Positions 4,568 to 49,800 of a stretch of 64,000 bases of DNA are shown here, piece by piece. The stretch's first letter is position 1. Each line of letters opens with the position of its first letter. Origin of the DNA: a virus; IMG/VR virus record IMGVR_UViG_3300043436_004480, positions 29,745 through 93,744 of that record; one strand, 5' to 3'. Below the pieces are notes generated by a model, which was not told the origin of the DNA, ran no database searches, and saw only the letters and a list, made by a program, of their open reading frames with translations. The position numbers and the translations under genes were made by a program.

Positions 4568-4880
4568 AATTTTCTTTAGTTTCTATCAACCAATATTTAA
4601 CTTTTGGTTGATTACGATTGACAATTGATTCTTTTTCAGATACGACAAAGCCGTATTTTTCTAATCTGCGTTTCACGCTTTCTAGTTCACCTTCTTCATA
4701 TTTTTCAATATCAAGAAATGCTTCGATTGGATTTGCAGGGTTCTTTGCTGCATTACGCAGTTCAAAGTTTATTTTTTCGAGAAGAGGAATTTCATCATTC
4801 CTATTTTCACGAATTCTTTTTAAGTCGTCCAAACTTGTTACTCGAGACAAACTTTTAAACGTAGTCACTTTAAAGCCCAT
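4431..4880 (-). CDS. hypothetical protein (149 aa; 3' part overlaps the next gene)
   Basis: ORF; CAAAATT-ATG context. Confidence 0.6.
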   Translation of the reverse strand: MGFKVTTFKSLSRVTSLDDLKRIRENRNDEIPLLEKINFELRNAAKNPANPIEAFLDIEKYEEGELESVKRRLEKYGFVVSEKESIVNRNQPKVKYWLIETKENYDLQQRSNKESEDFRTGTPNHIVDNRNLVSLKNRDYPPRFPAARP

Positions 4881-4943
4881 AATTTTGATAATTTTAAAGG
4901 TTAAAAATGTGCAGACTTTTACATCTGCACATTAATTTTAATA

Positions 4944-5726: not shown

Positions 5727-6002
5727 CGTTTATTAAGGAAGGATGTGTTTCTGCACAATACACATCAAATTGTTGTGAAATAAGAACTTTTTAAAATACT
5801 TAAAGTCTCTCCGCAATTTTCTATTAATAAGGACTTCTGCAACGACTTCGCAGCATTTGGAATCTTATGAAAATAGAAATAATTAACTAAGGAAGTTAAT
5901 ACATGATTTTTACTTCTGCACGATACCTCTTACGTTATGAACTAGTCATCGACTTGAGTTACGCCCCACATGTTTGTCATTTCTGAAGAATTTCTGTAAA
6001 AT

Positions 6003-6030
6003 AAAAAACTCTCTGATTTCTCAGAGAGTT
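6003..6030 (-). terminator. intrinsic terminator ending the tmRNA coding piece
   Basis: AACTCTCTGA-GAAA-TCAGAGAGTT followed by TTTT. Confidence 0.85.
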
Positions 6031-6300
6031 TATTCACCGTTTTAGTAGGTTTCACTCGTTTAGCTTATGCTGCAACTGCAACACGAGAAAACATAGGTAC
6101 TGATTTGCCGTTTATGGCTTTGCTTTCCTTTCTCAGCGATTTTTCATACTGTCAAAACCGGTCTTCCCCAATTTGCAGAAATGCATCTGCACAGTACTAA
6201 AGCGACTGGTTAGCTACAACAAAAGTTGAGTGGAGAAGTAGGGATTCGAACCCTAGTCCAACATGAATTCTACTTCGATACAAGCGGAACGCATCGTAAA
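6007..6300 (-). ncRNA. ssrA: circularly permuted (two-piece) tmRNA
   Basis: Acceptor piece comes first: TTCATGTT-GGAC-TAGGG-TTCGAAT-CCCTA-CTTCTCC-A, ending at 6231. A 61-nt intervening segment follows. The coding piece starts at 6169: GGGGAAG-ACCGGTTTTGAC-AGTATGAA. The 7-bp acceptor stem has G3:U70 and A73. Tag ORF 6109..6065 reads GKSVPMFSRVAVAA*. The 5' boundary is approximate. Confidence 0.92.
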
Positions 6301-6365
6301 AGTATGCAGAGTTATTTAACTATGCAACTTTAAATTTTAAATCTTTTCCCAGAAAAAGAAAAAGA

Positions 6366-7288: not shown

Positions 7289-7414
7289 TTTAATTTATTA
7301 AACTTTCTTTGCAGTATCTTAGCAACAGAATAATAAATTAGTAAGTTTCTCTGGTTCTTCCCCTTTCTCTTTGAAACTTACAAATGTCTGAGATTGGAGG
7401 TTCTTGGTTTAAAC

Positions 7415-7509
7415 AAGTCGAAATACGGGATTCATAGCCCGCACTTCAACTCAAAGTATGTTTACTCTTAATAAAATCACATAGACGGAAACATACAAAG
7501 TTTCTATGC
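7415..7509 (-). ncRNA. pseudoknot (7456-7509) followed by a 15-bp minihelix-like hairpin (7415-7452)
   Basis: GAAAC/GTTTC interleaved with GTAT/ATAC, L3 ending AAAC; then GAGTTGAAGTGCGGG-CTATGAAT-CCCGTATTTCGACTT with several G:U pairs. Confidence 0.5.
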
Positions 7510-7550
7510 AAAGTTTTACTCAATTACAATAGTTGTAATTATTCATTTGA

Positions 7551-8009
7551 CTAATCATGTCCAAATATATCTTCTTCAAGATAAGACTTGACAGGCTCCT
7601 GAGTTTTTTCTTTTTCTGGGACATCTTTCATAGAATCAATCCTTGAAAGTAAGTTCTTTACATCAACTTTTTGACGAAGATCAGAATTTTCTTTTGCCAA
7701 GTTATCAATTTGACTTTCTAAACTTCCTATCAATTGAAGACGAAAAGCATTTTTATTTACTTCGTTTGCAAGATTTCTATTTATTCTTTCCGTTTCTTTA
7801 TTCACTTGATTTACAAGTAGATAGCAAAGTAGTATCAAACCTAAAACAGAACTCAATAACAAAAGAGTCAAGAGTATAATTTCAAGTTTAATTAAGTTAG
7901 TTCCAAGAACTATCCAGAAGATTAAACATGTTGCTACAATTGACAATGCAATTATAGCTAGAATTTGCGTGAATGCAGTAGCTGCAATTTTATTGATTTT
8001 GGTATTCAT
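7551..8009 (-). CDS. 2-TM + coiled-coil hypothetical protein
   Basis: Two N-terminal TM helices followed by coiled coil. Confidence 0.7.
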   Translation of the reverse strand: MNTKINKIAATAFTQILAIIALSIVATCLIFWIVLGTNLIKLEIILLTLLLLSSVLGLILLCYLLVNQVNKETERINRNLANEVNKNAFRLQLIGSLESQIDNLAKENSDLRQKVDVKNLLSRIDSMKDVPEKEKTQEPVKSYLEEDIFGHD

Positions 8010-8017
8010 AATTTTAA

Positions 8018-8042
8018 TTCTGTTAGCCTATACACAGAAAGG
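8018..8042 (-). promoter_or_regulatory. family-A pseudoknot upstream of AUG (copy 1)
   Basis: CCT-T-TCTGT-GTAT-AGG-CTA-ACAGA. Confidence 0.7.
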
Positions 8043-8065
8043 TGTTTTGGTTGGTAAATGAGCAA

Positions 8066-8515
8066 TTACGATAATAGTAATTGCTCTAATTTGTACTTTG
8101 ATTCTTTTATTAACATTTCTAAAATGTCAACATGACCAATTAAATATGCAGTTTCATTTCCAATATGACCTTCTGCACGTTTTTTGTATTCTGCAATTTT
8201 ACTTTCATAAAATTTGATGTTCTCTTCATGAACATTTTTAATATTATGAATATTTTGCATCTTTTCATCTTGAAGTGCATCCCAAGCATACAAACTTTCA
8301 TCTGCAAGTTTGTTAATATCTTGGAATGTTTCCCTAATCATAAAGCACATTCCTATGAATGCGCCAAATCCTAGAGATATTAGAGCGTAACCCATAATTA
8401 CTACGGATTCCAACTTGTTTTCTGTAAATTTGTTTCCTATTATACAAGAAACGAAAACTAACAAAAACATTGTTAGTATGGCAAATATATTGCCTTTGAT
8501 TTTACTTGAATTCAT
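8066..8515 (-). CDS. 2-TM + coiled-coil hypothetical protein
   Basis: Architecture similar to 7551..8009. Confidence 0.7.
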   Translation of the reverse strand: MNSSKIKGNIFAILTMFLLVFVSCIIGNKFTENKLESVVIMGYALISLGFGAFIGMCFMIRETFQDINKLADESLYAWDALQDEKMQNIHNIKNVHEENIKFYESKIAEYKKRAEGHIGNETAYLIGHVDILEMLIKESKYKLEQLLLS

Positions 8516-8526
8516 AATTTTAAAGT

Positions 8527-8551
8527 TCGATTGACCTATGTATCGAGAGAT
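8527..8551 (-). promoter_or_regulatory. family-A pseudoknot upstream of AUG (copy 2)
   Basis: ATCT-C-TCGAT-ACAT-AGGT-CA-ATCGA. Confidence 0.7.
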
Positions 8552-8558
8552 ATTATTT

Positions 8559-8921
8559 TTAAAGTTTTGTTAAGCTTCTACATCCGATGATTTCACCTTC
8601 GGAATTTCTTACTGTTTCTGCAACGATGTAAAAATCATTGCGTTCGGGATAATACGTTTTTATTGATTGTGCAGCAATTTGCGACACAACATAAATCGTA
8701 TTTTCCTTTTCTTCTGGGATGAAATCTGGTTCTCCGAAAGACGTTTTAGCCATAACTGGAATTCCGAATGTTCCTCTACTTATGAAAGTTTCTTGAACAT
8801 ATGGATTCTGCTTTGCTCTAACAATTCCGTCACTTTCAATCTCTAATGCGATGACATCTACGTCATCTATTTGTGCATAAAATCTTAGTTTATGCGGAGT
8901 GAAATTTTTTATTTCAGTCAT
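8559..8921 (-). CDS. conserved phage hypothetical protein (N-terminal NxTPH, C-terminal GxIIGCRxL)
   Basis: Motifs KNFTPH and VRNSEGEIIGCRSL match a recurring phage family (from memory); start reassigned to MTEIK. Confidence 0.75.
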   Translation of the reverse strand: MTEIKNFTPHKLRFYAQIDDVDVIALEIESDGIVRAKQNPYVQETFISRGTFGIPVMAKTSFGEPDFIPEEKENTIYVVSQIAAQSIKTYYPERNDFYIVAETVRNSEGEIIGCRSLTKL

Positions 8922-8931
8922 AATTTTAAAT

Positions 8932-8957
8932 TCGATTAACCTATACATCGAGAGGTT
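8932..8957 (-). promoter_or_regulatory. family-A pseudoknot upstream of AUG (copy 3)
   Basis: AACCT-C-TCGAT-GTAT-AGGTT-A-ATCGA. Confidence 0.72.
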
Positions 8958-8964
8958 TTGAGAT

Positions 8965-9318
8965 TTATAATTTGTTGTTACTACGGATCATGAATTTTCC
9001 GTATGCCATTAGAGTTTCTCCTGCTAATTGAGAGTAAACTGAATCGGGACACATGTACGCATCAGTTAGAAATTCTACTTCTACTAAAGTTTCAGGGTTA
9101 GTTCCTAATTCTAGTGCATTATCAACGTGCTTTTTTAGCTCTGCTAAAGTTAAATGTTTACTTTTACTTTGAACTTCTTCAAGTTCAGCAAAAGCCAACT
9201 TTTCTTTCAACTGATTCATTTCTGAAGTCATCTGAGTTATCAATTCTTCGCCAGTTGAACCAGCGATGTCTGCTGCGTAACCTTTAATACGCATTTTTAA
9301 TTCTTCTACCTTTGTCAT
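8965..9318 (-). CDS. hypothetical protein (117 aa)
   Basis: ORF; CAAAATT-ATG context. Confidence 0.7.
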   Translation of the reverse strand: MTKVEELKMRIKGYAADIAGSTGEELITQMTSEMNQLKEKLAFAELEEVQSKSKHLTLAELKKHVDNALELGTNPETLVEVEFLTDAYMCPDSVYSQLAGETLMAYGKFMIRSNNKL

Positions 9319-9328
9319 AATTTTGAAA

Positions 9329-9350
9329 TGGTTGCCTTTACACCAAAAGG
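9329..9350 (-). promoter_or_regulatory. family-A pseudoknot upstream of AUG (copy 4)
   Basis: CCT-TT-TGGT-GTAA-AGG-CA-ACCA. Confidence 0.68.
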
Positions 9351-9587
9351 TTAATTTTGAATTTTAAATTTGACGGAATGTGCAGTCACGCACTGTGAAT
9401 AAGAACTTGTTCTGTTGATTAGACTACAAACAATTTGTTTCTTACATCTGCACATTCATTTTAACAGAGGCCAAGATATAATATGCAAGTTGACAAAAGT
9501 TAATCAGACTTTTGTCCAATGTTATTCTTTCTGCACTATATCTTATTTATGCTCCACGCATACCTCTGCTAAAACTGTCAAACTTTG

Positions 9588-12010: not shown

Positions 12011-12847
12011 CTACAATGAATTAAGGATTTGTTTAGAGCGAGTAGGTAATTCATAAACAGTCCATTGTAGAGAATGTAGAAACTGAAAAGCTTCTTCTGA
12101 AGTTTCATTTTGAAGAAGTAATAATCCTAGATCTTCATGAATAGAAGCAACAGGTCTGTTATTGTAAAGAATTACTACTGAACCTCGAAGTTCTGGATGG
12201 TTAAGATAGAAAGAAGAGAAAGGAAAGTCTCTGTTTATATCTGAATACAAATTTTGCATAGGAACAACTCCATATTCGAAGTGAGGTATATAGAAAGCTG
12301 TCGCAGATTCTTGTTCGTTAGTAACTCCAATTGCATATGAATTTCCATATTGAAGAAGACATCCAAGTTGAGAAGTTTTAGCTTTTGTTTTTAAATACAA
12401 AGCACTAAGCAAAGGATTTATAGAAGGATTCTGCAAAAGAAGTTCTACTGCAAACCAATCAACAGTATATCGTTGTGAATTTGAAAATCTAACAAGTGGA
12501 CAACCTAAAGCTGCATCATCTATATATATATGTGCAAACTGTTTATTAGAATGGCTCCAACTTTGATCTGGATTAAAGTTCAACCAATCAAGATTGAATT
12601 TAAGATCGTGCATTTTGAGAAAGTCAAAAGCTTCTTGCAAAGTGTCTACTGGTTCTGAATCTTTGTCTGGTCTGATTTGCAGAGTACTTCGCATAGTCCA
12701 GAGCATAAGTTGAACTTCCGGAATTGTAGATAGTTTAGTTAGAACTTTCTTTGCATACGGAACAAGTTTGCCTATTCTTGGGAAATCATGAGTTACAATT
12801 GTTCCATCGAAGTCAACTCCGATAATAATCTGGTTTTTTTGAGACAT
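12011..12847 (-). CDS. HAD-superfamily phosphatase (BT0820-like) with a C-terminal extension
   Basis: Motif I VDFDGTIV, motif II LWTMR, motif IV YIDDAALG; start reassigned to MSQKN. Confidence 0.85.
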   Translation of the reverse strand: MSQKNQIIIGVDFDGTIVTHDFPRIGKLVPYAKKVLTKLSTIPEVQLMLWTMRSTLQIRPDKDSEPVDTLQEAFDFLKMHDLKFNLDWLNFNPDQSWSHSNKQFAHIYIDDAALGCPLVRFSNSQRYTVDWFAVELLLQNPSINPLLSALYLKTKAKTSQLGCLLQYGNSYAIGVTNEQESATAFYIPHFEYGVVPMQNLYSDINRDFPFSSFYLNHPELRGSVVILYNNRPVASIHEDLGLLLLQNETSEEAFQFLHSLQWTVYELPTRSKQILNSL

Positions 12848-12965
12848 ATTATATATGTATAGGTTAAAGGTTAGATTGCTCTGGGAAAGAGGGCCGAAAT
12901 GAGAATCGCCCAAGTCTTTTTCTTTTTTTGGGACTACTATTGACCTGTAAAAATTTTGACTTTTA

Positions 12966-26977: not shown

Positions 26978-27433
26978 ATGACAAACGCATACGATATTTC
27001 TTACTTTGTTTCATTTGATGAAACAATGAGCAAAGAAAAAGAAGTTCCTACTTTAAAATCATTATTTTTAAAAGCTGGAATAAAATACTCTTTGGCAAAA
27101 GAAATACTTACTGAATATTTTAAACTTGTTCCGCAGGCACTTGTAAATAACGGAGAATATTCATTTCCGGGATTAGGCAAAGTATCAATACGAAGATACA
27201 AAGGCAAGAGAACAAAAATGTTAGATTATAAGCATTATAAACTAACCGGAGAAATTCAGCATATTTATGATACTGAACTAGATAGAAACTATTTCAGATG
27301 TTTGTGGACAAGACCTTTTAATGCAGCTAGTCATAATTATAGATTATCAATATCTATAAGGTGTTTCAGAGCAATGAAAAAAACAATAGAAGATAACAAT
27401 CTTCAAAACAATTATCCTTTGCAGAAATCATGA
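26978..27433 (+). CDS. IHF/HU-like protein of the crAss-like tail module
   Basis: FPGLGKVSIRRYK...LDYK...YFRCLW pattern; synteny. Confidence 0.65.
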   Translation: MTNAYDISYFVSFDETMSKEKEVPTLKSLFLKAGIKYSLAKEILTEYFKLVPQALVNNGEYSFPGLGKVSIRRYKGKRTKMLDYKHYKLTGEIQHIYDTELDRNYFRCLWTRPFNAASHNYRLSISIRCFRAMKKTIEDNNLQNNYPLQKS

Positions 27434-28309: not shown

Positions 28310-31300
28310 ATGAATAGCTTCGAAAGAGGATTACATACTGAATTTGATCCAGCATTCCAACCAAAAGGATCTTATAGAGATTTAACAAATGCAGTTAGAG
28401 ATTTATCAGGAACTCTTTATTCGGAAAATGGAACTATTGAAATAATGAATATACCTACTGGTCTTAAACTGGTAGGTAAAATTCTTATTAACCAAACTCT
28501 AGTTTTGTTTCTTTCTAATTTGCAGTCAGGTTCTGAAAATGTATCTGAGATAGGAATTTATGAAAACGAGCAGTATGTACCTTACGTTTCAAATAGAATT
28601 AATTCTGGTGCAAAACTTCAATTGACAGAGGATGTATTCAGATTTAACGAATTTAATTTAGTTCCGGGAACAGGAAGAACAAATTACAATGGTGACTTGT
28701 TGATTTATTTTTCTGATGGAAACGGAGAAGCAAGAACAATAAATTTAACAAAAGTAGAAAGTGAAAACCCTTTAACTTTTGCAGAAGACAGTAAGCTTTT
28801 TATATCAAGATTAATTCCTGTAATAAATTATGTTTCTGTAACTGATGATGGAGAATGCTTATCCGGAGTTTATCAATTTGCAGCTAGGTATGTTACAAAT
28901 TCAGGAAATACTTCTCCGTTCGGATTTGTAACTAATCCTATTTCTATTGTAGATGAATCAGAAAATTCAAATTTTGGTCAATACGATGGATGTTTACCGC
29001 AAACACAAACTGCAAAATCTATAAACATAGAAGTAAGTCACTTAGACACAGATTACCCATTTATAGAAATAGCAATGCAGACTTATGTAGGTTTGCAGAA
29101 TACTCCTACATATAAAATTATTGCTCGTTTGCCAAATAACAAATCGGTAATAAGTTACAAATTCACAGGAAAAGAAGACAGAGGCTCAATAACAAAAGAT
29201 GAATTTATACAAGAAGGTGCATCTTATTCATTTGTTTCTTTTTATCAACAGAAAAATAATCATTTGTTAATTGCTGGACTTGCTGCAAAAAACGAAGACT
29301 TTGGATTTGAAGAACTTGCAAATAACATTGAGATAAAACTACAAGCTAGATTTACTTCTCCAAGTCAAAACAGAGTATTGTTTAATACTAGTGAATCTGA
29401 CGATGGAAGATTTCCTACTTATGTAGATAGTGATTATATAAATTATGGAAATACGCTAATTACAGGAAGAGGAAATATTATAGATTTAAAATCTCAGTCA
29501 TTAGGAGGAGCAAACACTTACAAATCTCCAGTTTTTGCAGCAGATAATAAATGTTATATGCCAGACGAAGTCTATTCGTTTGCATTCGTTCCTATTTTTA
29601 AAGATGGAACTTATGGATTTGCATATCCGATATTAGCAAAATCAACACTTCCAAAAACAGAACAAGATTTTGCTAATCTTTTAGGAGAAGACGACATTCT
29701 TGAAACTTTCAACCCTTTTACAGGAATCGGAACTTTGTTAAGATATGATTCAGAGGAAACTTATGCAGATGGAAATGAATCTAAAATCATAAGACATTTT
29801 AGATTTCCTCCGAAAAGATATTATGCAAAATTTGTAGAGGATGTTTATAAAGGAGAAGATGTTCCTAATCCAGCAAGACATAATGTTGTATATGGAATAC
29901 ATGTTTCAAATATAAACTTTACAGAAGCACAGAAAAAAGTATTACAAGGTTACGTGATTGTTCGTCAAAAACGAGATACGTTTCAAAACAAATCTGTATT
30001 ATCACAAGGTTTTGCAAAAAATTTCAGTAAAAACAATGCAGGAAACGTAACTGTTTGGGACATTCCTGTATTGGGAACTACGCAGTTGGAAAATTATCCT
30101 CCAGACGGAGGAACTGATTCAGACAGATTAGTCGGAATAAATACTTCTACTGGAGAACTTCTTTCTGCAACAATAGGTGATTATTGCAAATTTTATAGTC
30201 CTGATATTTTTCACAATGTTGAAACTGGACAGTTTGCAAAACAAATGTGTTATGGAGGAGATTTGAAAATATCTTTAGGGTATCTTGCACAAGGAGGAGG
30301 AACAAGTGTTCAACAAGATTTGTTTGTTGCTTCGTTAGAAAACACTAATTATACAAATGATAGTGCATACGATCAAGGTTTTTCAGACTTTATAGAAGAT
30401 AGGGCAAATTTAGGAACTGAACTAGAAGAAAGAACCATCATTGCAAACTTATTAAAAAACGTAAGCGCAGACAATTATTATGATACAAATTCTTTCTGGA
30501 GACCATCAGGACTAGATTATCAATCATTTGGTGATCAATCAAAAACATGTCTGTATAGATTAAACGGAAGATTAAAAAAGACTTATAATCGTCAAACTTT
30601 AGCTGGAGCAGATTTCAATTTTGTTAAATTACGCAGAGATAGTTCAAACAACGTAAGCGATTTCGATGGAAACAAGACCAAAAAAGTAAAACTTTCAACT
30701 CATTATATAAAAGCCAATAATACTCGTCAATACGGAAAGTTAGAAGAGGCTGAATATATGCAGGTTGGAGTTTCTTTTGATTTGAATGCAACTTCTATTT
30801 CTTTAATGGGCGGAGATTGTTATCTTTCTTATTATTGGATGAATTACAAAGAACTTTTATCTTTTGAGGGATTTAATCGCTCAATATTTACCATTGTTCA
30901 GTTACCTATTCTCTCAGAACAAAATTACAATTTAAGGCATTATGTAGAGGCTGGTTCAGGACAGACTGCACAGGACAGCGAAGGAACGCAGCCATACTAC
31001 CCTAAAGAAACTCGCATTTTTAATGGTAGTACCGGACAAAGAATTGGATTGGCAAATTTAGATATAAAAAATGGAGTTTCGTCTGGATATAATAAACAAT
31101 ACGGATTTCAGAATATAACTAAATCCTTTTTTGCAAAACCTTTTCTATATGAAAAAATAATTGACTTTAGTAATCGAGTTGCTTATTCTGATCAGTCAAT
31201 AGAAGGAGAACAACTAGATGCATTCAGAATATTCAAACAGAATAATTATCAAGATGTAACCAGACAGTTTGGAAAGATTTCTGATTTATTTGTATTTAAT

Positions 31301-37773: not shown

Positions 37774-37798
37774 AGTCCGCCAAGTGCGGACTTTTTTT
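37774..37798 (+). terminator. intrinsic terminator
   Basis: AGTCCGC-CAAGT-GCGGACT followed by a T-run. Confidence 0.8.
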
Positions 37799-37811
37799 GT
37801 ACCTTGGCTTT

Positions 37812-40800
37812 ATGGCAAAGCAACAAAAACCTACTGTACCAGTTGTAAATCGTAGTACACAAGAAATTGATCAAATATCTAAGATGTTTGATAATGTAAA
37901 AGGTGGACTAGATAGTTATGGAAATACTGCAAGAACAAGTTTTATAGGAAAAGACGATTATACTACCAGTCAATATGATACTGAAAGAACTCAGTTCGAT
38001 GATATGGAAGCAGTATATAATGCAAGAAATGCAAATCAAAGTTACTTTGATATTGCAGGAAATATGCTGGGAAAAGTTGGAGTTCGTGCTTTGTCTGCAA
38101 CTATTGATTTAGGAGCAATGATTTCTGGTTCAGGAGTAAGCGGAGTTCCTTTATACTTATTTGATAAATACGTAAGAGATAAACATCAAAATGTAAATAG
38201 TTTTTGGGATGGTTACAAAGAATCCGTATTTGATAACTCAATAACAGATCTTGCAGATTTAGTTCAAGAATTTGGAGATGATAATTTTCAACAACAATAT
38301 AGTGCAGATCAAAGAAAATCAGATGGAGTTTCATTAAAAAGAATTGTTACAGAGGGAGTACCAGATGCAGCAGGATTTATTTTATCTGCATGGTTAACTG
38401 GAGGAACGTCTGGCGCAACAAGTTTAGTAGGAGGAGCAGCAAAAGCTGCAACTGGTATAGGATTAGCAGGAAAAGGATTAAATGCATTAAAAGCTTCTAA
38501 AAGTTTTGGAAAAATGATGACTGTTTTTCCACAAGAAACCAAAGCTATACTTTCTGCTGCTTCTAAAGGTGCAGATGTTACAGAAGATATAATTAAATTA
38601 AGTAATGCAGCTAGAAATGCAACACGTTGGAATTTAGCAAAGTCTGCATTTACAGGTTCTCTAGGAGAAGCTTCACAAGAAGGCAGAGCAACAAGAAAAG
38701 AAGTAGAAAAAGAACTTGTTGAAAATTACATGCGTGAAAATGGAATTGCAAACGAAGAAGATATAGATGTGTTTACAAGAGCGAGTCTGAGAAGTGCTGC
38801 AACAGATGCAGGTGTTGTAAATTTTGCTATAAATAGTGCAATCCTTACAGGTTCAAACTTATTATCTTTTCCTACTTATTTTAAAAGATTTCAACATGGA
38901 AAAAGAGAACTAGGAAAATTTGTAAATAAAGGAATAAACCCGGATGATGCATATGATTTAGTTAAAAAAACAACAAAACAAAGAGTAGGCGATGCAGCAA
39001 AAAGATACGGAGAAACTTTTATAAAACAAGGCACACCAGAATCCGTACAGGAACTTCTGCAGACAATGTCTTCTTCCGGAGTAACAAATTATTATTCTAA
39101 CAAATTTTCAGAAAAAGAAGCAGAAGAAGCTACAAGTGCAATTGGTGGATTTTTATCTTTGTTTGCAGATACAATCTCAAGTACAGAAGGACTTGAAGGA
39201 ATGATTGTTGGTGGTCTTATTGGAGGCGCACCGGCAATAGTTGCAAATGAAAAAGAAAGAGGTGCAAAAAGAAAAGAAGCAGCCGAATTAGTAACTGCGT
39301 TAAATAATAGCCAAGCAAAATCACAATATCCAAAGTTATTCAAAGGTATTGTAGATAATCTTAATTCTCAAAAAAAGAAAGATACTGCCCTTGTAGCAGA
39401 TGACATCTTTACTTTTAAGAATGAAGATCATAAGCAGATATTTGACTATATGAACTTGCGACTTGATCTAGATCGTGAGGAAGATATAAAAGCAGATATT
39501 GAAAATCTAAAAGTTGCAGATCCAGATATATTAGATGAATTATTTGGTGCAAAAAATAGTGAAGTAGAAGGTTTTTCTTATGCAGATTTAGCTACAAAAC
39601 TAGAAGAAAAGTTAGAGGCAGTAAAGAAAACTCGTGACAAAATAAATCTTAATTATACAACTCTTGATCAAGAAACAAAAAATCAGCTGATGTATTTTGC
39701 ATCAGCAGTTGACAACTTTGACAAGAGAGAAAACCAGATTGTTGAAGAATTGGCTGCACAAACTGGAGTAAGCGTAGATACTATTAGAGAAACTTATAAA
39801 AGTTACAAAGATACAGATGCAGTAGATTACAAAGATGTAATTCTTAGAGAATCTAAAAAGAAGTTCAATGTTAATCCTATATTAGATAGTTTAGATACAC
39901 TTGCAGATTCACTAGGATTGTCAAGTGCAACTAAGAAATCATTTTTAGATTTTGAAACTGAGAAAAAGAAAACGGAGCCTGATTTTAAAACAGATTTGGA
40001 TTCTCTGTTTAAGATTATTACAGGAGAAGCCGGTACAACATCTTCTTTGTTTTCTGGGGATAATACTAAACCTGCAAACTCTGAACTTTCATCAGTAATA
40101 GATGAAAATGCATTTTCAGATGAGTATAAATCACTAATAAGTTCTGCAAAAACAGATTATGCAGCTAAAAAACTTAAAGGCAACCAAACAAGAAACGAAA
40201 AAGGACAATTTGGAGAGAACGAAGATTTTTCTCCTCAGTCTGAACAAATAAACAAAACTTTTTCTGACTTAAAAAAAGTTGCAGACACAAGAGAAACTTA
40301 CTACAAGTATTATACTGAACTTAGCAGAAATCCATTTGCACAAGCAAGATTCAGAAACGAAGTTGAGCAAGACAAGAAGAGATATGCAGAATACATATCT
40401 AAAATATTAGCACAGCCTGTAACTACTCCTGCGGAATTAGCATCAGCAGAAACTAATACTTCTGCTTCTAATTCTATTGCAGAAGCAGGTAAAAAAGCTA
40501 CTCCTACTTCTGGTTCAATTCCATTTTCAGAAATGCCAAGTGGTTATGAAACAGGTACCGGAGATAACTCAGGTTTGCCAACTCCATCTGGAAATCAGAT
40601 TATTCAACAACCTCCTGCAAAACCAACAGAAGAAAAAAAACCGAACCAGAAAAAAGAAGAACCTTCTAAAGGAACTGGTACAAACACAAGTACACAAACC
40701 TTAAAAGAAGCACTTGCAAAGGTAGTTCAAAAAAGTAATACAATTTCTCTTAATGAAAAAGGAGATGGATATGTAGTAAAAGGTTTAGGAAAATTTTTCA

Positions 40801-43800
40801 GAAGAGCAACGTCTGTTGTAGGAAGAGAATTTACTGGCGGGAAGTCAAAGCAGACAAATCAGATTGCATTAGGTAATGCATTCGATGTATTAGGAAAATT
40901 GACTTTTGGAAAAGAAGGTGCAGAAGCTAGTGAAGAAGATAAAGCAAAATTGTTACCTATTTTTCCTTCGATTTCTCAAGAACTTGCTGATATAACTGAT
41001 GGTCTTGCAGGAATAAGAAAATCTTTAGAAACGGGATCAAAAACAAGACCAAAAGCAATAAATTTTTATACAGGTTTAAAACTTGCAAATACAACAGGAT
41101 TAAACATAGCAGGCGAAATAGATTTGCTTGTTGAGTACGAAGACGGAAGTTTACAAATTGTTGATTTTAAGTCGACTTCTTCAACTGACTATATATTAGA
41201 CAATTATCTTCCTCAACTTTCTTTATATCAGTCTTTATTACAAAGAGAACTCAATTTACCAGATGTAAATTTTAGAGAACCTGCAATAATAAATATTGCT
41301 ACTAAAGTAGATCCTAATAATTCAACATTAAGAATATTTGACGAAAAGTCTGTAAAAGCAATATCTCTTACAGATACAGAAGATAAAAAGAATCTTGGAA
41401 TAAAAACAAGAAGTTTCTTATCAATGTTATTAGAGTATGAAGGATTTACAGATGAGTACTTCTCTTTACCAGAAAACAGAAATGATTTAGAAGCTGTTGC
41501 AAGATACAATCAGGAATTATTAAGAAATCCGAATATAAATCACGAAGTAGAACTTCTTGATAATGGATTAACGGCAATATATGCAGAATTATCAGATGGT
41601 TCAGGAGCAAAAGAAAGCAAACATGTTTCTTATATTCATACTGATTCAACTCTAAAAGCATACAACATAGAAAATGCAAAGATGCTTCTTTCTGAAATAG
41701 AAAAAGACACTTGGGCAAAAGACAATCTTCTGAAACCTGATATAAAAAGAGAAATACGTTCGACTTTCGATAAATTGAATAGAGTAAGAAACGTAAGAAA
41801 CTCTTTAACAAAAGGAAAAAGAAATAAACTTTCTGTAAAAATTTCATATTCTCCTGATTTTTTTGTTAGTGAAAAAGATTGGAAGCAACAGAGAACTTTG
41901 GCAGATATGATTGCAGCAGGAGATATTCCTATTGGATCTTATGTATATGAATCATTAAGAAAAAAAGACAATAATTCTTACTCGGTAAAACCACTAAAAG
42001 AAACAGGAACTCCAGCAGACCTGACTGCTACTGCTCAAGGACTAAATGCAAAATTTCCTACTGACAAATGGATTTTAGTATTACCAAAAGCAGATTCTAC
42101 TGTTGCTCCAAAAAGAGTAACGCTAAGACCATTGCCTATATTCAAAGAAGATGGAACTTCATTGACTAAAAGTTCAAGAGAAAAGTTAGACAGTCTTAGA
42201 AAGTTAGCAACTTCAAACTTCGAAGCTTCTAAGGCTACTGATATTCTGAACTCTCTAGTTTTTATTCCTACTCAAAAACAATATGAAGTAGAAATAGAAG
42301 GAGCAGATGGAAAAATCAAAAAAGAAAATACAAATTATGACTTTAGAGTTTCAGTAGCTGGAAAACTATCAGATACTGAACTTGCAGTTACTTATCAAGT
42401 AACAAGTTATAAATATGAGAATGATACATATACACCAGTAGATTTTACTTTTACTGGAAGTATGGAATTACTTTCTGAAGATGAATTTGAATTTCTTTTG
42501 GATATGCCTACTACCGTAAACAAAGGAAAAATGTTTGAAGGTAGTGAGTTTTTAGGAAAAACAAATAAGCAGATATTTAATGAACTTCTTGGAAAAGATG
42601 GAAAACCGGGAGTAACTGAAGCGAAAGGTAAGTTTGCAATTGACAAATCTTCTTTCTTGTTAGGAAGTCCTACATCTGCATCGGAATTAGTTCCTTTATT
42701 AAATCAAGATGTGCCTATAAAAGTTGTAAAAGAGTTTGCAGAACAGGCAGTAGGCGAGGAAGTACAAGATTTGAAGAAATCGGAAACAGTTGCTAATAAA
42801 GTAGTTGATAATCTAGTTACTCCAGTAACAATAAAACAAGAGGATGAAGATACTGGATATTCTTTGTTTTCTGGGAATAATTTAGTTTCTGCTGATTTAC
42901 AGGATATAAAAAATAGACTTTCTAAAATACTTCCTTCTTCTGTTGAAGTTAGTAGTATTATGTCTATGGTTCAAAAATTAAATCTTACTGGTGCAGAACT
43001 AGGAATGGTTTATAAAAACGCAATTTATCTTGCTAATAAAATTGAAAAAGGTACAGAGTATCACGAAGCATTTCACATTGTTTTTAGGTCGATTCTTTCC
43101 GAAAAACAAAGAGCAGAACTTCTCGAAGAAGAACTTAGAAATAATCCAGTATCGCAGGAAGAAGTTGATTCTTTCAAAAATCTTCACCCATCGTATAAAT
43201 TTTTAACAAATGAAGAAGCATTAGAAAAACTTCTTGAAGAAAGATTAGCAGATAGATTTCAGACTTATCAAGTTAAAAAAGATTCTACTTCCTTGGTAGG
43301 AAAATTCTTTAACTATCTAAAAGATCTAGTTTCTTCTCTTTTTAAAAACAGAAGCAAGATAGATTCAATCTTTGCAGAAATAAGTGCTGGAAAATTTAGA
43401 AATTCTGCATTGTCTTATAATGGAAAAGCTGTATTATTCAAAGCTTTGCCAGCAATGATGGTGAGTGAATCAGACTATTTAGTAAGATGGATTTCTTCCG
43501 AAATAGCTGCTGATTTTACTAACAGAGAACAAGGTGATAATTTAGAAGAAGCGAAAGAAAATGCTTATGAAGGTTTAACTGATTCATATCTTGATAATCT
43601 TACAGAAAGATATTATGCAGAATCAGGAATGCAGATGAGCAAGGAAGAGTATGATAATTTAGATATTGCTAGTAAACAATATTATGTTGCTACGAAATCT
43701 GGCGAATATTTACCTAAATCTGGATTTCTAGATCTTTCTGCAAGACCTGCATTTTTAGCAGAATTAAGAAATGAAATTCTTAATAAGTTTAATAATTATG

Positions 43801-46800
43801 CATATTTCGATTCAGATTTGGAAGATATTAGATCTGGAGCATCTGAAACAGCAAACCTGAAAGACTATGAAGCAGAAAACAATACTGTTGGTGGATTAGA
43901 TTCAATCAATAAGAAAGTTACAGGTTGGCTAGACTCAATTTTCTACATAAATGAAAAAGGAAGAAAAGTAATGATAAATGTACAACAAGTGCATGCAAAA
44001 CTCATTACTAATCTTGCAGATTCATTGTCTGGAGAAGAACTTATTTCCAAATTAGAAAAAATTGCAGGAACAAAAAGTAATCCACGAGATAGAGAATTGC
44101 TTGCTGTATTAGATGCTTATAATGGATCTAATATGAAAAAAGAAGTTCAACTTTTGTTTTTGAATTCATACAACAAAGTGTATATGGATTCAGTAACTAC
44201 CTTGCTTAATTCTTCAATGAAGAAGATTCAGCTAGACATGGTAGAAACAAATGGTATTGCAACAGATGGCTCAACAAAATTAGTAAACGAAAACAATCGT
44301 GCTGCATTAAGAGAATATTTAGGAAACTTTAGTGGTAATTTTAATATTATAACTAAGGATAAAAACAGAACTTTATTAAATTCCGAATTACAAGAAGAAT
44401 ACGAAGACATATCTAAAAGTATTCAAGAGTTGTCAGAAGATGAACAGCAACCTATATTAGAAAGAATGAAATTCATTCTTGAAGAACACTTAGGTATGGA
44501 CCTATCAGTAGAAACTCTTAGGGAAAACTATGTTCTTACTGATAATCTGGAAACCAAAGAAGTAAAAGAGTCTATTTCTGAGATTTTGAAGTTTGTTACC
44601 AAAAAAGGACAAAATCCTTTCTTGGATGATAGTAAAGGAACTAACAATCGTTCTCGTTTGCATAAGATTATTCTTTCGGAAATGAAGTATTCGTTAGAAC
44701 CTATTTCTGCATTGACTTACAAAGATGCAACAAATAAAAATCGTTATGCAATTACCGGAATGTTTGAAGAAAAAAAACGTCTTCTTAGATTTCAAAGAGA
44801 TGGTGCGTTTTTAAGAGAAATAGTTGAAAACGATTATTTTAAGTTTTCTTCGTTATTTTCATCTGGAACAGACGGAATAGGAAAGATTTCTAGTACTCTG
44901 AATTCAATAAAATTAACTTTTGTTAATGGGCTTTCTTACAAAAAGACAAAAAACAATGGAAAGAGAACTTTCAAAGATTTTAATTCTGCTGACCACATAC
45001 TTTCTAAATTAAGTCTTTACGAAAAAGGATATATTAGTCCGTTTGTTCACGAATCAGGTTCAACCCAAACTGCATATGATTTAGGCAAACTATTTGAAAA
45101 AAATGAATTGTTAGACAGAACAGTTGAGGCATTAGAAAAAGTAAAAGACTCAACCGGAAAAGTTAAACCTGTAAATCTAAACGAATCTTTTGCTGTTCAG
45201 TATGCAAACATTTTGAAACAAGATATTCATCTTGCAATCGAAAACGAAAAACTTTTAAGAACGGCAAAAAGAAAATTAGCTGAATTACAGAAATTAGCAA
45301 AAAGCAAAGATGAAAAAGTTGCTAAAGATGCAAAAGAAGAACTATTCAAAGAATCATATCTAAATGATTTAGTTTTAGGCCTTTCTTTTAAATATGAAAC
45401 TGACGGAGAATCTTTTGTATACGACGAAGAAGGAAACAGAAAAGTGATTTTTCTAAAAGATCCGAAGCATAGAACTTTCAACAGTATTGGAGGAGTTGAT
45501 TTATTTGCTGTAATAAAAACAGAGATAAATGGTTTAGGAGAAATAAGAAAAGAAGAGCAGTTAAACTCAGATTTAATATCGTATCTAACTGATTTAGTTG
45601 AAGCAGGAGCAGATCAAACTGCACAAATAAATAAAATTCTTTCTAATTCTAAAACTGGAAGTTATGCTTCTGTTTTTCAAAAAATAAGATCTGAAATACA
45701 CAAGATCACAACTGCTTCTGTTAAAAAAGAAATGAAATTTGCACGAGATCAGGGTGTAGATTATGCTTCTTTTTTCAAAGCTACTGCCGGAGTTTCTATT
45801 TATGAAAAAGCAGAACAGTATCTTTATGAGAAAGCAGTAAGATCTTTCTTAGGTTCAGTATATGTAAACCAGATGATTACTGGATATTCTGGAGCGCATA
45901 TAAATTTTAAGAATAACGTAGATATTGCCAAAAGAAGTAAAGATAAAACTTCTTCTGGAATGGACATGAGCAACTATGCTTTTGTTAATGATTCTGAAAC
46001 AACTGTAAACTTTGCAATTATTCCTGATGACATTTCACGATCTTCTAAAAAACAAAGTAAAAAAGCAGCAGAATACGATATTATAGCAACTGATGGTGCT
46101 GCATACGTAACTGCCAACTTTATGAAGATGTATCTAAAAAGTACAGTAGGTATATCACCAAAACAAGAAGAAATTTTAGACATTATTGCAAATCCTTATC
46201 GTTGGAACGAAATCGTAAACGTAGGCGGAATAAAAAATTATCTTAGAGAAATAAGACCAAATGATTCAGAATACATGAAAGCTCTGAATACTTTGGATTT
46301 AGCTCCTAAGAAAAGTTTTGTGGCTAATCCCGGAAGTTATGATAAACTAAATCAAGGAGGAGAAATGTTTAAAGACGCTTCTTTCTTTTTGAGTCCGGAA
46401 TTAATATTCACTCTAAAAAATGGTGAATTAGTACCAAGAAAAGGAATGGAAAGACAGGCACATTTATTAAAGCAAATGACATTGCAGAATATAGATAGTG
46501 CAGTTTATGTTTCTTCTTCTAAAGCTACAAAACGAAACTTATCTGTAATTCATCCAACAGATCCTTCAAAAATGTTCTTAAAGAGTACTCCTATTTCTAT
46601 GGAGCATATAAAAGAACAAGTTAGAATGGAAAGTGGAAAATTAAAAGTAGTTCATGGTACACAATTGATTGAGTTAGCAGATATAAGTTCGGTAAAACCA
46701 GAAGAAAGAGAAGAGTATCAAACTCTTCTTGCAAACACAAGAGAAAGTGCGCAGAACTTATATAGTTTAAGTCGTAAACTTATAACTAAGAATGGATTGA

Positions 46801-49800
46801 CTGTGTTTGCAAACTCTATAACTAACCAATTGGAAAGTAAAAAGAGGAATGTGAACGTAATGAAGCTACTGTCTGGAGAAACTACTGCTAATAATGAACA
46901 CAAGTTTAAATTTAGTGTAGATTTGCCGATTATTTCCAGTTTGTTTGAAGAAGCATTTTCTTCTTTTTTTGGGAAAAATGTAAACCGTCAAAGAGTAGCA
47001 GGTTTAAAACTTACTCTTGCTCCTTCAAAAGGAATGACTTATGAAGTTACAAAAGCAGGAAAACCTACTTATAATACATTAAGAAGAGATGAAGAAAAGT
47101 ATGACTATAAAGAATTAAAAATTCATAGATACGAAAGCGGAGAATTCAAATTTGCAGAAGTTTTAATATCAGAAGAAATTCTTGATGATATAAAAATTTC
47201 TCGTAAGGATTTCTTAGCTCTTTCTGAAGAAGAACAACAGAAAGCTTTGCAAATGATTGGTTATAGAATACCAACTCAAGCAGCGCACTCAATACTTCCT
47301 ATAAAAGTAGTTGGTATTTTACCAAGATATTACGGTTCTGTTGTATATATGAACGAAGAAGCCGTAGCAATAATGGGTGCTGACTACGATATTGACTCCT
47401 TATTTGTATTTAGAAAAAAGATACAATCTATATCTACTATAAATGCACAAACAAAGAAAAAAACTACTCGTCTTCTTACTCATGAACTTAATTCAGAAGA
47501 TAGACTTGACAGTTGGCTTCAATACATGTATTCTGAAAAGAAATTTAGAGGTTTCTTAGAAAGATACGCAGAAACAAGAAGTAAAGAAGAAGGAAATGTA
47601 ATAACTCTAAAAGATATTCTTTCTATTGATGAAGAGAAAGTAATGTTATTTGGAAAATTGCAGCAGATGGGAATAATATCTCCTAACGAAAATGCTCCTA
47701 ATTATTATTCGCCTTTTCAACAGCAAAATAGAATCTTAGAACTTAATCTCGGCTTTATAAAAAGCATGAGTCAAGAAGAATTAGAAGAAGTTGCATTACG
47801 TCCAGCAGGAACGTCTTTAGTAAAGAATGTTGCAGACACAATGGCTGAATTCTTAGGATTTAACAAAAACGATGAATTCGGTTTTAATTTTCCTTCTGAA
47901 CAGCAAGAATCACAAATTCGTAATACTGTCGGAAAGAAAAACGTAGGTAATGCGGTAGCAGTTGCAGTTGCTGCCTTAGCAGTAGCTAAAAACGAATCAG
48001 TTGTAGCACATTTGTCAAACCCTCTTGGTTTAAGTGTTATTGATAGTTCTGATAGTTATGAAGCAGATGTTGCTTATGATAAAAATACAGGATTGCTTGT
48101 TATTTCTGAAAACGAAAGACAAGTTCCTAAACAATTAAGTTTTTCAGACGTTTCTTCATCTTCAACAGATGACGCAAAAGAAAACAATGCTTATAAACTT
48201 AATATAACTGAATTTACTATAAAAAGAGTAAGCGCAGGTATAGCAATGGGATTAGGAATAACTAGATCGTTACTTCTTAATACTATTCCTATAATGAAGT
48301 ATATAGCTAACTTTGAAAAACAAGGACAAAGTGCGTATGATATAAAAGAAGACTTTTTGAAAAAATCTATTGATTTTACAAAAGCTTATGAAGATTTAGC
48401 TAAAAAACCAATTCGTCTTGATAGACAAAATCCAAAACCGGCATTGATTAGATTTAATGAGATGTTAGCAGATGGAATAAATTTCTTTAAGACTGACACC
48501 GGTAAAGTAGTAAAGTCTATAATGAGAGATACGGACTCTTTTGTTTTTTCAAAAGACGTAATAGCAGAACTTAAACAAAAATTAAACGAAGAGCAGAAAA
48601 AAGATTTCGGTTTATTCTTAATAAACCAAAGAGAACTTCTTGATTTGTCTGATTATTTAGGTGACGTTGCTACTTTATTACTTAGATACAGAAAAGTAAA
48701 TTCTAAAGGAAATAAAGAGGTAGGAACTACGCTTGCAGATTATCAAGAAATTGTTGATAATTTCGAATCAGAAAAAGAAATACAAGAAAAAGTATTATCT
48801 GGAGAGTGGGAAGTACCTGCAATAGTAAGAACTGACGGAGTTCCAGCTATAACTAAAAACGGAGAAGCAATTTATAGAAATGCACTTCGTGTTTTAGAAG
48901 ATTCTGAAAATTATACTTTGAAAACAAATAAGATGTTCAGAAAATCTTATATGTCAACAAAAGGAATGTTTTATTCAGACAAGCAGAAAAAAGAAAAGAT
49001 GTTAATTGACTCTTTCTTTAACTGGTTTAATATTCAGGCTGCAAAAAGACGTAGTTCAGCAATAAAAGACACCCAAACTTTAGCTAAGGAATATATCTTT
49101 TCAAAAGATAACAATGTAGCCAAGAAAATAAATACTTTATTAGCAAGTAGTCCTGAGTTACAAAAACTTCTTAGAAAAAATACTTTCTGGAAAAAGTTAG
49201 AAATAACAGACATTGATCATCAAAAAGGTATTTTTGCAGCAGAAATAAAGTTTCCAAGTTATTCTACTAAAGATACTATGGTAGAAGATAAAATTATTCA
49301 AGATGCATCTATAATATTTACTAATTTAAAACTTAGTAACTTTTCAGAACAGGATAAACCACTTGCTGAAAAACTTTCAAAGGAATTAAAAACTCTTCGT
49401 GAATATTTAACTACTTATGAATTACTAAGATCAGGATTGTCTTATAAAAATAATAGTTACACTTCAAAGATGCCTGCATCTTTATTTTCAAAACAATCTG
49501 ACTTTTTAGAAAATTTAAGAACTGAAATTTTTGCAGAAGTAACCAGAGAAGAGGCAGCATTAGTAGCTAAAAAATACTCTGTTGATCCGAGTGTTATAAC
49601 TAAAATGGATGTAGTTTCCAGAAGACTGTATTATTTACTAAATCCTAATGCAGAATCAGAAAACAAACCTTACAAACCCGGAACATCAGAAAGTGCATGG
49701 ACACATAGATTTAATTATTTTTCTGTTTATTTCAAAAAGAATGAAAACAGAATATCTTTGTCTTCAGTTTTTGGAAGTGTAACAAAAAATGAAACTGACA

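Follow-up and report, generated by a model that had tools for sequence, protein, structure and literature searches.

Why should four consecutive small genes of a phage each be preceded, at almost the same distance from the ATG, by the same short foldable sequence, and what could be reading it? This question was raised by a crAss-like lake phage (IMG/VR record IMGVR_UViG_3300043436_004480), of which a stretch of 64,000 nucleotides (positions 29,745 to 93,744 of the record), referred to below as the window, was analysed. A sequence-only reading of this DNA had proposed a covarying pseudoknot upstream of the four genes, possibly acting on translation and possibly also serving as a recombination handle. 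The copies are described here together with their relatives in other phages, and the functions that they may fulfil are weighed.

Four copies in a crAss-like lake phage

All four hairpin copies were located on the minus strand, ahead of the ATGs at 8009, 8515, 8921 and 9318 (window coordinates), with the positions and spacing given by the sequence-only reading. From ACCU (AUCU in copy 2) through the 3' arm, they extend over 8043-8019, 8551-8527, 8956-8932 and 9351-9328, and are followed by A/U tails of 9, 11, 10 and 9 nt, respectively. Their parts, and the genes that follow them, are listed below.

8007..8046, minus strand: copy 1 (model R1 64 bits, model R2 37.3 bits); ACCU 8043-8040, spacer U 8039, 5' arm UCUGU 8038-8034, loop GUAUAGGCUA 8033-8024, 3' arm ACAGA 8023-8019, tail AUUAAAAUU 8018-8010, AUG 8009-8007
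7551..8009, minus strand: gene after copy 1; 152 aa, N-terminal half hydrophobic, without Pfam or PHROG family
8513..8554, minus strand: copy 2 (model R1 55 bits); AUCU 8551-8548 (U·G with loop AGG), spacer C 8547, 5' arm UCGAU 8546-8542, loop ACAUAGGUCA 8541-8532, 3' arm AUCGA 8531-8527, 11-nt tail 8526-8516, AUG 8515-8513
8066..8515, minus strand: gene after copy 2; 149 aa, N-terminal half hydrophobic, without family
8919..8959, minus strand: copy 3 (model R2 45.1 bits); ACCU 8956-8953, spacer C 8952, 5' arm UCGAU 8951-8947, loop GUAUAGGUUA 8946-8937, 3' arm AUCGA 8936-8932, 10-nt tail 8931-8922, AUG 8921-8919
8559..8921, minus strand: gene after copy 3; 120 aa, match to phrog_30542 (function unknown), E 1.2e-16
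9316..9354, minus strand: copy 4 (model R1 53.6 bits); ACCU 9351-9348, spacer U 9347, 5' arm (U)UGGU 9346-9342, loop GUAAAGGCA 9341-9333, 3' arm ACCA(U) 9332-9328 (4 bp and a U-U), 9-nt tail 9327-9319, AUG 9318-9316
8965..9318, minus strand: gene after copy 4; 117 aa, without family

A consensus pattern of 21 positions retrieved three of the four copies, against 0.00 expected (100 shuffles), and missed copy 4, whose loop is one base shorter. No further full copy was detected by a structure-aware scan of the entire 93.7-kb genome, so that four is the total for this phage. Copy 3 displayed a second in-frame AUG at 8948, within the arm-loop junction, which is probably not the start. The AAAAUU-AUG that the sequence-only reading had noted does end the tail of every copy, but it is not specific to the element since AAAAUUAUG also occurred at no fewer than five other minus-strand genes of the window that are devoid of hairpin. 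Three genes of the same phage displayed ACCUU fused straight to the A/U tail, without hairpin.

The 2-kb region gave no blastn match among cultured phages and, for the gene after copy 3, no close relatives were found in viral contigs. Sequencing runs matching window positions 7400-9500 were DNA runs only, from lake and freshwater metagenomes.

Hairpin covariation and a candidate crossing stem

About 170 distinct copies were collected, with the consensus AACCU, one base, a 5-bp stem, the loop GUANAGG-YN-A, the stem partner, an A/U tail and AUG. The element itself measures about 29 nt, and roughly 45 nt as a module with its surroundings. Both the 10-nt loop and the 5' AACCU flank were nearly invariant.

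The stem displayed the opposite behaviour: 36 distinct arm pairs were recorded, and yet 96.8% of the cells were paired over 57 aligned copies, a value reached by none of 500 shuffles and far above the 16-41% obtained in slid-register controls. All five pairs showed changes on both sides. These counts were taken from the model-based alignment A6, as the MAFFT core alignment misplaced the one-base loop gap. The compensatory changes first noticed in stem 2 of the window copies were thus extended to the 57 aligned copies, and the hairpin is proven by this sequence covariation. As to the strand, wobble cells read in the sense orientation comprised 17 G·U against 2 A·C, which designates the sense strand as the folding one and makes RNA the simplest reading. 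The single G·U pair of copy 2, previously put forward in this respect, is real but weak evidence when taken alone, the overall excess being the stronger argument. Both observations therefore bear out the initial suggestion that the mRNA strand contains a conserved folded element. Taken by itself, the hairpin is marginal (-3 to -5 kcal/mol, z about 0) and no stabler than shuffled sequence. Folding energy alone would thus not reveal the element, and the conserved loop must make additional contacts.

One candidate contact is the crossing stem CCU:AGG (stem 1). Its three pairs were invariant, save for a C-G to U·G change in 2 of the 57 rows, while an optional fourth A-U pair was broken in 20 of them without compensation. 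In a scan blind to this stem, 76 of 82 matches kept CCU and AGG (as ACCUC and NAGG). Five changes in total were recorded across its six positions, C to U (2) and A to G (3), all of which leave a wobble pair; no compensatory double change was seen. In about 130 copies the connectors hardly vary: CCU is separated from the hairpin by 1 nt, and within the loop AGG is preceded by 4 nt (GUAN) and followed by 2-3 nt. These lengths appear compatible with an H-type pseudoknot when judged by general rules. A 3-bp pseudoknot, CCU:AGG, thus probably holds the AACCU flank and the loop together; it is plausible but unproven. Since stem 1 lacks double changes, CCU and AGG could alternatively be contacts for a protein or for rRNA rather than mutual partners, and the hairpin-less ACCUU of the three genes mentioned above fits poorly with ACCU acting as a pairing partner only. 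The covarying pseudoknot of the sequence-only reading is accordingly to be narrowed down: stem 2 covaries, whereas stem 1 consists of invariant pairs and the knot as a whole does not covary.

Carriers, start codons and candidate functions

Carriers were found among Crassvirales, Flavobacterium columnare myophages, siphophages of Flavobacterium and Riemerella, three Microviridae (genomes of about 6 kb) and jumbo-size contigs, as well as among phage-like genes inside Bacteroidota genome bins. Examples are the crAss-like lake phage, cr50_1, a Kolpuevirus, Ficleduovirus V175, Muminvirus and Riemerella phages, with Flavobacterium, Riemerella, Bacteroides and Prevotella-type bins among the hosts. 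Only one to seven genes per phage carry the element, often in a run, and the crAss-like phages phi14:2 and crAss001 were without copy (best scores 14.5 bits or less), indicating that it is dispensable for phage translation in general. Among 150 sampled Bacteroidota genomes, no match was obtained besides the seed genome (stricter filters, 49 candidates scored per genome), and no true match was found in plasmids. The downstream ORFs fell into about 22 unrelated groups (median 102 aa), and the element is independent of gene family and phage lineage. As a dedicated partner can hardly be encoded by microviruses, it is probably supplied by the host; near-invariance between phages as different as 6-kb microviruses, crAss-like phages and jumbo-size ones implies that this host reader is very conserved.

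Whether the distance to the AUG would be random in homologs had been left as a test by the sequence-only reading. It proved to be tied to the start codon: among 172 copies, 126 had a tail of 8-10 nt and 165 one of 5-13 nt. In full phage records, 11 copies were read after a search with a model holding no start-codon information, and in all 11 a start codon, including one GTG, lay 5-12 nt downstream; several of these copies had been missed by earlier pattern scans. Exceptions were one Muminvirus copy without nearby start and one Riemerella copy located 21 nt from the ATG. On the upstream side, a same-strand stop codon occurred within 30 nt of the element in 115 of 169 copies, and the element was also encountered before first genes at divergent junctions (cr50_1 and Riemerella GDF21).

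No Shine-Dalgarno (SD) match was detected: the tails are A/U-rich without GGAGG-like run, and the sole AGG sits within the loop, 17-21 nt upstream of the AUG. Likewise, 30 aligned copies displayed no promoter, with neither a conserved block beyond about -10 from ACCU nor a TTTG or TAnnTTTG layout. GUAUAGG was considered as a sigma-70-like or T7-like promoter box and dropped for want of a second box and of upstream conservation, and because the wobbles are strand-specific.

Tentatively, and with slightly less than even confidence, we favour an SD-independent ribosome-docking start module, which would help host ribosomes to start on small accessory genes. The element would be a cis-acting RNA, located in the 5' UTR of accessory genes of Bacteroidota phages or in the spacer between cistrons. 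A host component of very high conservation, the 30S platform or protein bS1 being the likeliest candidates, would recognise the folded knot and thereby bring the ribosome to, or place it on, the AUG of each cassette gene without regard to the neighbouring ones. Host start regions in Flavobacterium johnsoniae are devoid of structure between -20 and +20 and display A at -3, -6, -12 and -13, and bS1 was suggested as their reader (PMC6847099). The element shares with this Kozak-like context (Baez et al. 2019, PMC6847099) a tail, typically AAAAUU-AUG, with A at -3 and -6 and no SD, features typical of highly translated host genes. It differs by being structured from about -38 to about -10, its structure ending mostly 8-10 nt before the AUG, where the host regions are unstructured and display A at -12/-13. 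Placing structure where host start regions have none suggests a specialised initiation route. Complementarity of loop and flank to the 16S rRNA of two Bacteroidota was limited to matches of 6-8 nt including G·U, i.e. chance level.

A more daring version, which we regard as decidedly unlikely, would make the element a bacterial counterpart of viral IRESs, in which a self-contained copy of the SD/anti-SD helix fills an empty platform cleft. In the 5' flank (A)ACCU(C/U) one recognises the beginning of the anti-SD tail carried by Bacteroidota 16S rRNA (GAACACCUCCUUUCU), and in the loop AGG(U) the 3' portion of an SD. The anti-SD of Bacteroidota ribosomes is itself locked away by bS21, bS18 and bS6 (PMC7797042). 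Flank and loop would then pair in cis, stack on the hairpin and occupy the platform cleft, so that the AUG, located 8-10 nt downstream, would be brought into the P site, and phages bringing their own SD helix would out-compete host mRNAs.

Several traits of the element would also suit an operator, at which a trans-acting RNA-binding protein, either a host global regulator or a widespread phage protein, represses or times the translation of accessory genes. Invariant unpaired loop bases on a variable stem are typical of protein-binding hairpins, only a subset of genes per phage is concerned, often in runs, and the structure lies within the ribosome footprint, where binding would block initiation; RegA and gp32 of T4 are precedents for translational operators. 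Such a role is nevertheless unlikely, as a phage protein common to microviruses of roughly 6 kb and to very different phage families and hosts is hard to conceive, and a special rationale would be needed for phages to keep sites for a host repressor. Quite unlikely in our view is a signal for mRNA processing or stability, whereby a host endonuclease cut would separate cistrons and the hairpin or knot would cap the downstream 5' end, following the logic of the RNase III sites between T7 early genes. It would account for the frequent proximity of an upstream stop codon (the 115 of 169 copies above), and the A/U-rich tail adjoining the hairpin resembles the usual context of RNase E/G sites, namely an A/U-rich single strand beside a hairpin. 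Neither cleavage nor capping, however, needs a tight spacing of 8-10 nt to the AUG, there is no upstream cistron to remove at the divergent junctions of cr50_1 and Riemerella GDF21, and a stem of 5 bp is far too short for RNase III cleavage.

Readings at the DNA level appear very improbable, even if 40-nt units repeated before small early genes are classically promoters and the breakpoints of cassette arrays at the element (see below) are reminiscent of attC-like single-stranded recombination sites. The hairpin promoters of the N4 virion RNA polymerase, which act on the template DNA strand and are confined to N4-like phages, likewise combine a small conserved-loop hairpin before early genes with a phage injecting its own RNA polymerase. 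A crAss-type equivalent, serving a virion polymerase with a preference for single-stranded templates, is conceivable, since the virion polymerase of phi14:2 transcribes single-stranded DNA and no early promoter motif is known for it (bioRxiv 10.1101/2020.03.07.982082). Yet phi14:2 itself is without element, the carriers include microviruses, myophages and siphophages without virion polymerase, and the wobbles mark the sense and not the template strand (the 17 G·U against 2 A·C); an N4-type hairpin promoter was ruled against on these three grounds. Neither a -33/-7 or -35/-10 layout nor a conserved upstream block was present, a DNA stem of 5 bp with a 10-nt loop would be very unstable, and neither a promoter nor an attC model gives any role to the constant distance from the AUG. 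Integron attC sites are folded single strands of at least 57 nt, which contain R''/L''-L'/R' repeats and a GTTRRRY core and have a tyrosine integrase encoded close by; with about 29 nt, a single 5-bp stem and no GTTRRRY core, the element was not retained as one of them. No integrase was noticed in passing beside the arrays. Finally, copies within a contig tended toward one common stem, e.g. ACGAU throughout contigs L192 and L193, which suggests local copying or gene conversion and might evoke a selfish or neutral repeat, spread by recombination and tolerated in spacers without any role in expression. We hold this to be barely credible: neither the loop nor the flank varies between hosts or phage families, the orientation is strictly sense, the spacing to the start codon is fixed and pairing was kept through at least 36 arm variants, all of which points to purifying selection on a function.

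The start module favoured here bears on how Bacteroidota ribosomes choose start codons without SD pairing. If the reader is the ribosome, the element would give a direct handle on SD-independent initiation, being short enough for mutagenesis, toeprinting and cryo-EM, and it might provide a compact portable start module for the engineering of Bacteroides and Flavobacterium. It is testable now since cultured carriers exist (the F. columnare Ficleduovirus, the Flavobacterium Muminvirus, Riemerella phages and the Bacteroides cellulosilyticus Kolpuevirus).

Known structured elements and gene junctions

The element is apparently undescribed so far. At the gathering threshold, Rfam 15 returned only Hatchet and permuted tmRNA over the whole window, both away from the copies. 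Between positions 7900 and 9500, with E up to 10, matches were at chance level only, the copies themselves being touched just by a 13.6-bit partial match to COG2908. An Rfam match with known function, which the sequence-only reading had named as an argument against novelty, was thus not found. Full-text literature searches gave no description of the motif, although large catalogues of candidate phage RNAs (PMC10690425) may contain it unnamed.

Among known structures, the preQ1-I riboswitch and other minimal H-type pseudoknots resemble it by their size (about 30 nt), a 5-bp hairpin, a loop-flank pairing of 3-4 bp and a location immediately before the start region. Here, however, the flanking strand is 5' instead of being a 3' tail, the start codon is not sequestered, no association with metabolic genes was observed and the riboswitch families of Rfam were unmatched. 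Structured initiation regions that are poor in SD and dock on the 30S platform exist in the rpsA leader (hairpins with GGA loops) and the rpsO pseudoknot of E. coli. Both share conserved purine-rich loops with the element; they are single-gene, chromosomal, longer and autoregulatory, in contrast to a portable, phage-borne unit of about 29 nt that precedes many unrelated genes in a phylum without SD pairing. The pseudoknot operator of T4 gene 32 is likewise a phage 5' UTR pseudoknot acting on translation initiation (PMC10690425), but it lies farther upstream and serves one autoregulated gene through its own protein, whereas the element is independent of gene and family.

In a small number of comparisons between related contigs, homology breakpoints fell at the element. 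The segment shared by contigs L192 and L180 ends at 2402, at an element located at 2372-2396, and homology resumes at 2792, 10 nt before another one at 2802, the ORFs in between being different. Similarly, an X3 contig, from a related strain, diverges at window position 8968, just upstream of copy 3. These cases lend support to the recombination handle suggested earlier. With the same module before many unrelated genes, the element would serve as short homology for phage gene exchange, and it appears from these alignments to be a junction where accessory genes are traded.

The closest parallel in this respect is PeSL (promoter-early stem-loop) of T4-type phages, a composite of early promoter and terminator-like stem-loop (Arbiol et al. 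2010, PMC2839356; Comeau et al. 2014, PMC4122927). Each is a short conserved repeat with a stem-loop, found in a variable part of the phage genome where it separates small accessory ORFs that are unrelated to one another, and both coincide with insertion, deletion or replacement breakpoints between related phages. The element is distinguished from PeSL by having neither promoter nor terminator, by its weak hairpin, whose loop is invariant and whose distance to the AUG is fixed at 8-10 nt, and by a family that spans unrelated phage families, including ssDNA microviruses. A junction role would thus carry the PeSL concept over to phages other than the T4-like ones, through a promoter-less unit of a different kind.

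Copies of the element in the phage genome

A sequence-only reading had proposed that the same element stands before the AUGs of four consecutive genes, and this was borne out on the minus strand, where four small genes start at window positions 9318, 8921, 8515 and 8009. Each copy displayed A(C/U)CU, one base, an arm of 4-5 bp, a loop of 9-10 nt with the core (G/A)(U/C)A(U/A)AGG, the complementary arm, an A/U tail of 9-11 nt ending in AAAAUU, and AUG. The consensus pattern recovered 3 of the 4 copies (0 expected in shuffled sequence), and whole-genome scans found no further full copies. None of the four downstream genes had a Pfam family.

Positions in and around the copies (window coordinates unless stated):
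8948-8946, minus: AUG inside the structure of copy 3, at the junction of arm (...GAU) and loop (G...), in frame with the gene
878-898 and 4878-4908, and near 27092 of the whole record C1, all minus: hairpin-less leaders ACCUU(U)AAAAUUA... before ATG, aligned to covariance model R1 with a single gap

Because of the in-frame junction AUG of copy 3, ORF callers begin the gene nine codons too early; the same AUG recurs in many ACGAU/UCGAU copies elsewhere. The tail AAAAUUAUG was also present before several other minus-strand genes without a hairpin and is thus not special to the element. In three other genes of the phage ACCUU was fused straight to the tail, and in these leaders spacer, stem and loop seem to have been deleted exactly from the element.

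The record C1 is a virus of 93.7 kb, of which the window covers 29745-93744. Terminase and portal matched PHROG families for the same functions, as did the major head protein, which also had about 30% identity to head proteins of gut crAss-like and Flavobacterium phages. DNA sequencing runs holding the element region came from lake and freshwater metagenomes. Within the window, genes lie on the minus strand from position 1 to about 12,900.

Other features of this crAss-like phage (window coordinates):
5901-5990, minus: Hatchet ribozyme match (Rfam, 61.4 bits; gathering cut-off 51), on the strand of the tmRNA gene and immediately 3' of it
6065-6277 (ARAGORN 5974-6320), minus: circularly permuted tmRNA gene (Rfam tmRNA_permuted, 59.1 bits), with the tag peptide GKSVPMFSRVAVAA according to ARAGORN
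12011-12913, minus: 300-aa ORF at the divergent junction, matching phrog_1238 (E 1.2e-23), a phage family with the annotation phosphoheptose isomerase; the ORF may be an auxiliary metabolic gene
37797-51605, plus: 4,602-aa ORF after the structural genes, with a PD-(D/E)XK nuclease domain (residues 1083-1153) as only clear Pfam match

Hairpin and crossing stem

The proposed pseudoknot was upheld for its hairpin, whereas its crossing stem CCU:AGG displayed no covariation in the 57 distinct aligned copies. Among these, 96.8% of hairpin cells were paired and 5/5 pairs had changes on both sides (83 cells), values reached by 0 of 500 shuffles; sliding the partner out of register reduced pairing to 16-41%. 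Over all copies, 36 different arm pairs were recorded and wobbles were one-sided (17 G·U cells versus 2 A·C cells), which identifies the sense strand as the folding one.

As to the crossing stem, ACCUC and NAGG were retained in 76/82 hits of a scan that left it unconstrained. Only five changes were seen at its six positions, C to U in window copy 2 and carrier L111 and A to G in carriers G007, L174 and L238, and all five retained a U·G pair. The chance of this is about 3% by our own arithmetic, taking the six possible transitions as equally likely; it is suggestive of CCU:AGG pairing, short of proof. A putative fourth A-U pair was unpaired in 20/57 rows and is therefore not supported.

Carriers, start-codon distance and possible role

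Three scans of public collections, filtered for complementary arms, and a fourth with one arm pair fixed and flank and loop free were pooled with covariance models R1 and R2. With about 170 distinct copies, the element is a large family. Carriers checked by eye comprised Flavobacterium columnare phage V175 (Ficleduovirus), gut crAss-like phage cr50_1, a Kolpuevirus of Bacteroides cellulosilyticus, a capybara and a pig microvirus, a Flavobacterium Muminvirus and a Riemerella phage. IMG/VR carrier contigs ranged from 8.5 kb to 174 kb and included three proviruses. Hits in bacterial genome bins were almost all from Bacteroidota (Prevotella, Parabacteroides, Alistipes, Paludibacter, Chitinophagaceae), before phage-type genes, for instance those coding for HNH endonuclease, T5orf172, PD-(D/E)XK nuclease or a crAss001_48-like protein. 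Chromosomal copies are rare: none was found under strict filters in a sample of 150 Bacteroidota genomes, nor any in plasmids. The model crAss-like phages phi14:2 and crAss001 are without the element. Rfam, whose search the sequence-only reading had suggested, holds no matching family and a literature search found no published description. We rate the element as a new family, joining the known kinds of structured start regions and phage cassette junctions.

The distance from 3' arm to AUG peaked at 8-10 nt (126/172 copies), within the range allowed by the search patterns and not at its edges. That the position relative to the AUG is not random was confirmed with R2, a model without any tail or AUG information: of the copies that it located in full phage records 11 were read, several of them missed by earlier pattern scans, and each had a start codon (one GTG) at 5-12 nt on its downstream side. 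There were three exceptions: a Muminvirus copy had no start close by, one in Riemerella was separated from its ATG by 21 nt, and the third was a V175 copy (carrier L085 3501-3590, record 45304-45390), which lies in an unannotated spacer before an unannotated, lysine-rich ORF of 16 codons, an arrangement shared by about 60 F. columnare phage records. In 115/169 copies the element began no more than 30 nt from where an upstream gene of the same strand stops; other copies followed a divergent junction and preceded its first gene. Downstream ORFs were small (median 102 aa) and fell into some 22 unrelated groups. Among the copies compared, no sequence was conserved upstream of about -10 from ACCU, so that a promoter is not part of the unit.

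Three features, namely folding of the sense strand, strict orientation and an SD-like distance to the AUG, point to a role in initiating translation. We tentatively favour a portable module on which the host 30S subunit would dock, or by which it would be positioned, at the AUG of the gene behind. Phages that infect Flavobacteriia, Bacteroidia and Chitinophagia carry the element with hardly any change, and it is also present in microviruses, which have only five or six genes; its partner is therefore expected to be a component of the host, and a highly conserved one. Well-translated genes of F. johnsoniae have start regions that lack structure from -20 to +20 and carry A at -3, -6, -12 and -13, and bS1 was suggested as their reader (PMC6847099); in the element the A-rich proximal part is kept and a structure takes the place of the distal part. 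The 5' flank of the element resembles the beginning of the 16S rRNA anti-SD tail in Bacteroidota, and its loop AGG(U) the end of an SD; this hints at a possible mimic, in cis, of the SD helix.

By itself the hairpin is of marginal stability (-3 to -5 kcal/mol, no better than shuffled sequence), and connector lengths are nearly fixed; both observations are consistent with a compact knot or with binding of a partner. That the element is an operator for an RNA-binding protein appears unlikely to us, and a processing or stability signal is less probable still. Folding of the sense strand is in keeping with RNA and speaks against a DNA hairpin, whether as a cruciform or on the template strand; a signal at the DNA level would be the most improbable of these explanations.

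Cassette arrays and homology breakpoints

Several copies in a row, each heading a small ORF, were common, with seven copies in L192 and five each in L193, L180 and G008.

Freshwater arrays of 5-7 copies in a row, with an ORF of 26-91 aa behind each copy (carrier coordinates):
2372-4866 of L192
2-1860 of L193
1382-3834 of L180, reverse

Nearly all copies of these three arrays displayed the arm pair ACGAU/AUCGU, and nearly all of this lineage a second ACCU three bases upstream. Homology between the related contigs L192 and L180 stopped at one copy (L192 2402; element 2372-2396) and restarted at 2792, 10 nt before another (2802); between these two points the contigs have different ORFs. Homology breakpoints at repeats were likewise reported for PeSL, a repeat of T4-like phages (PMC2839356, PMC4122927); the cases recorded here are few. 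Another lake sample gave a contig of the window's own lineage that followed gene 3 (120 aa) and copy 3 and diverged at 8968, the upstream edge of the element. Contigs matching only the 36 nt of the element were present in other samples.
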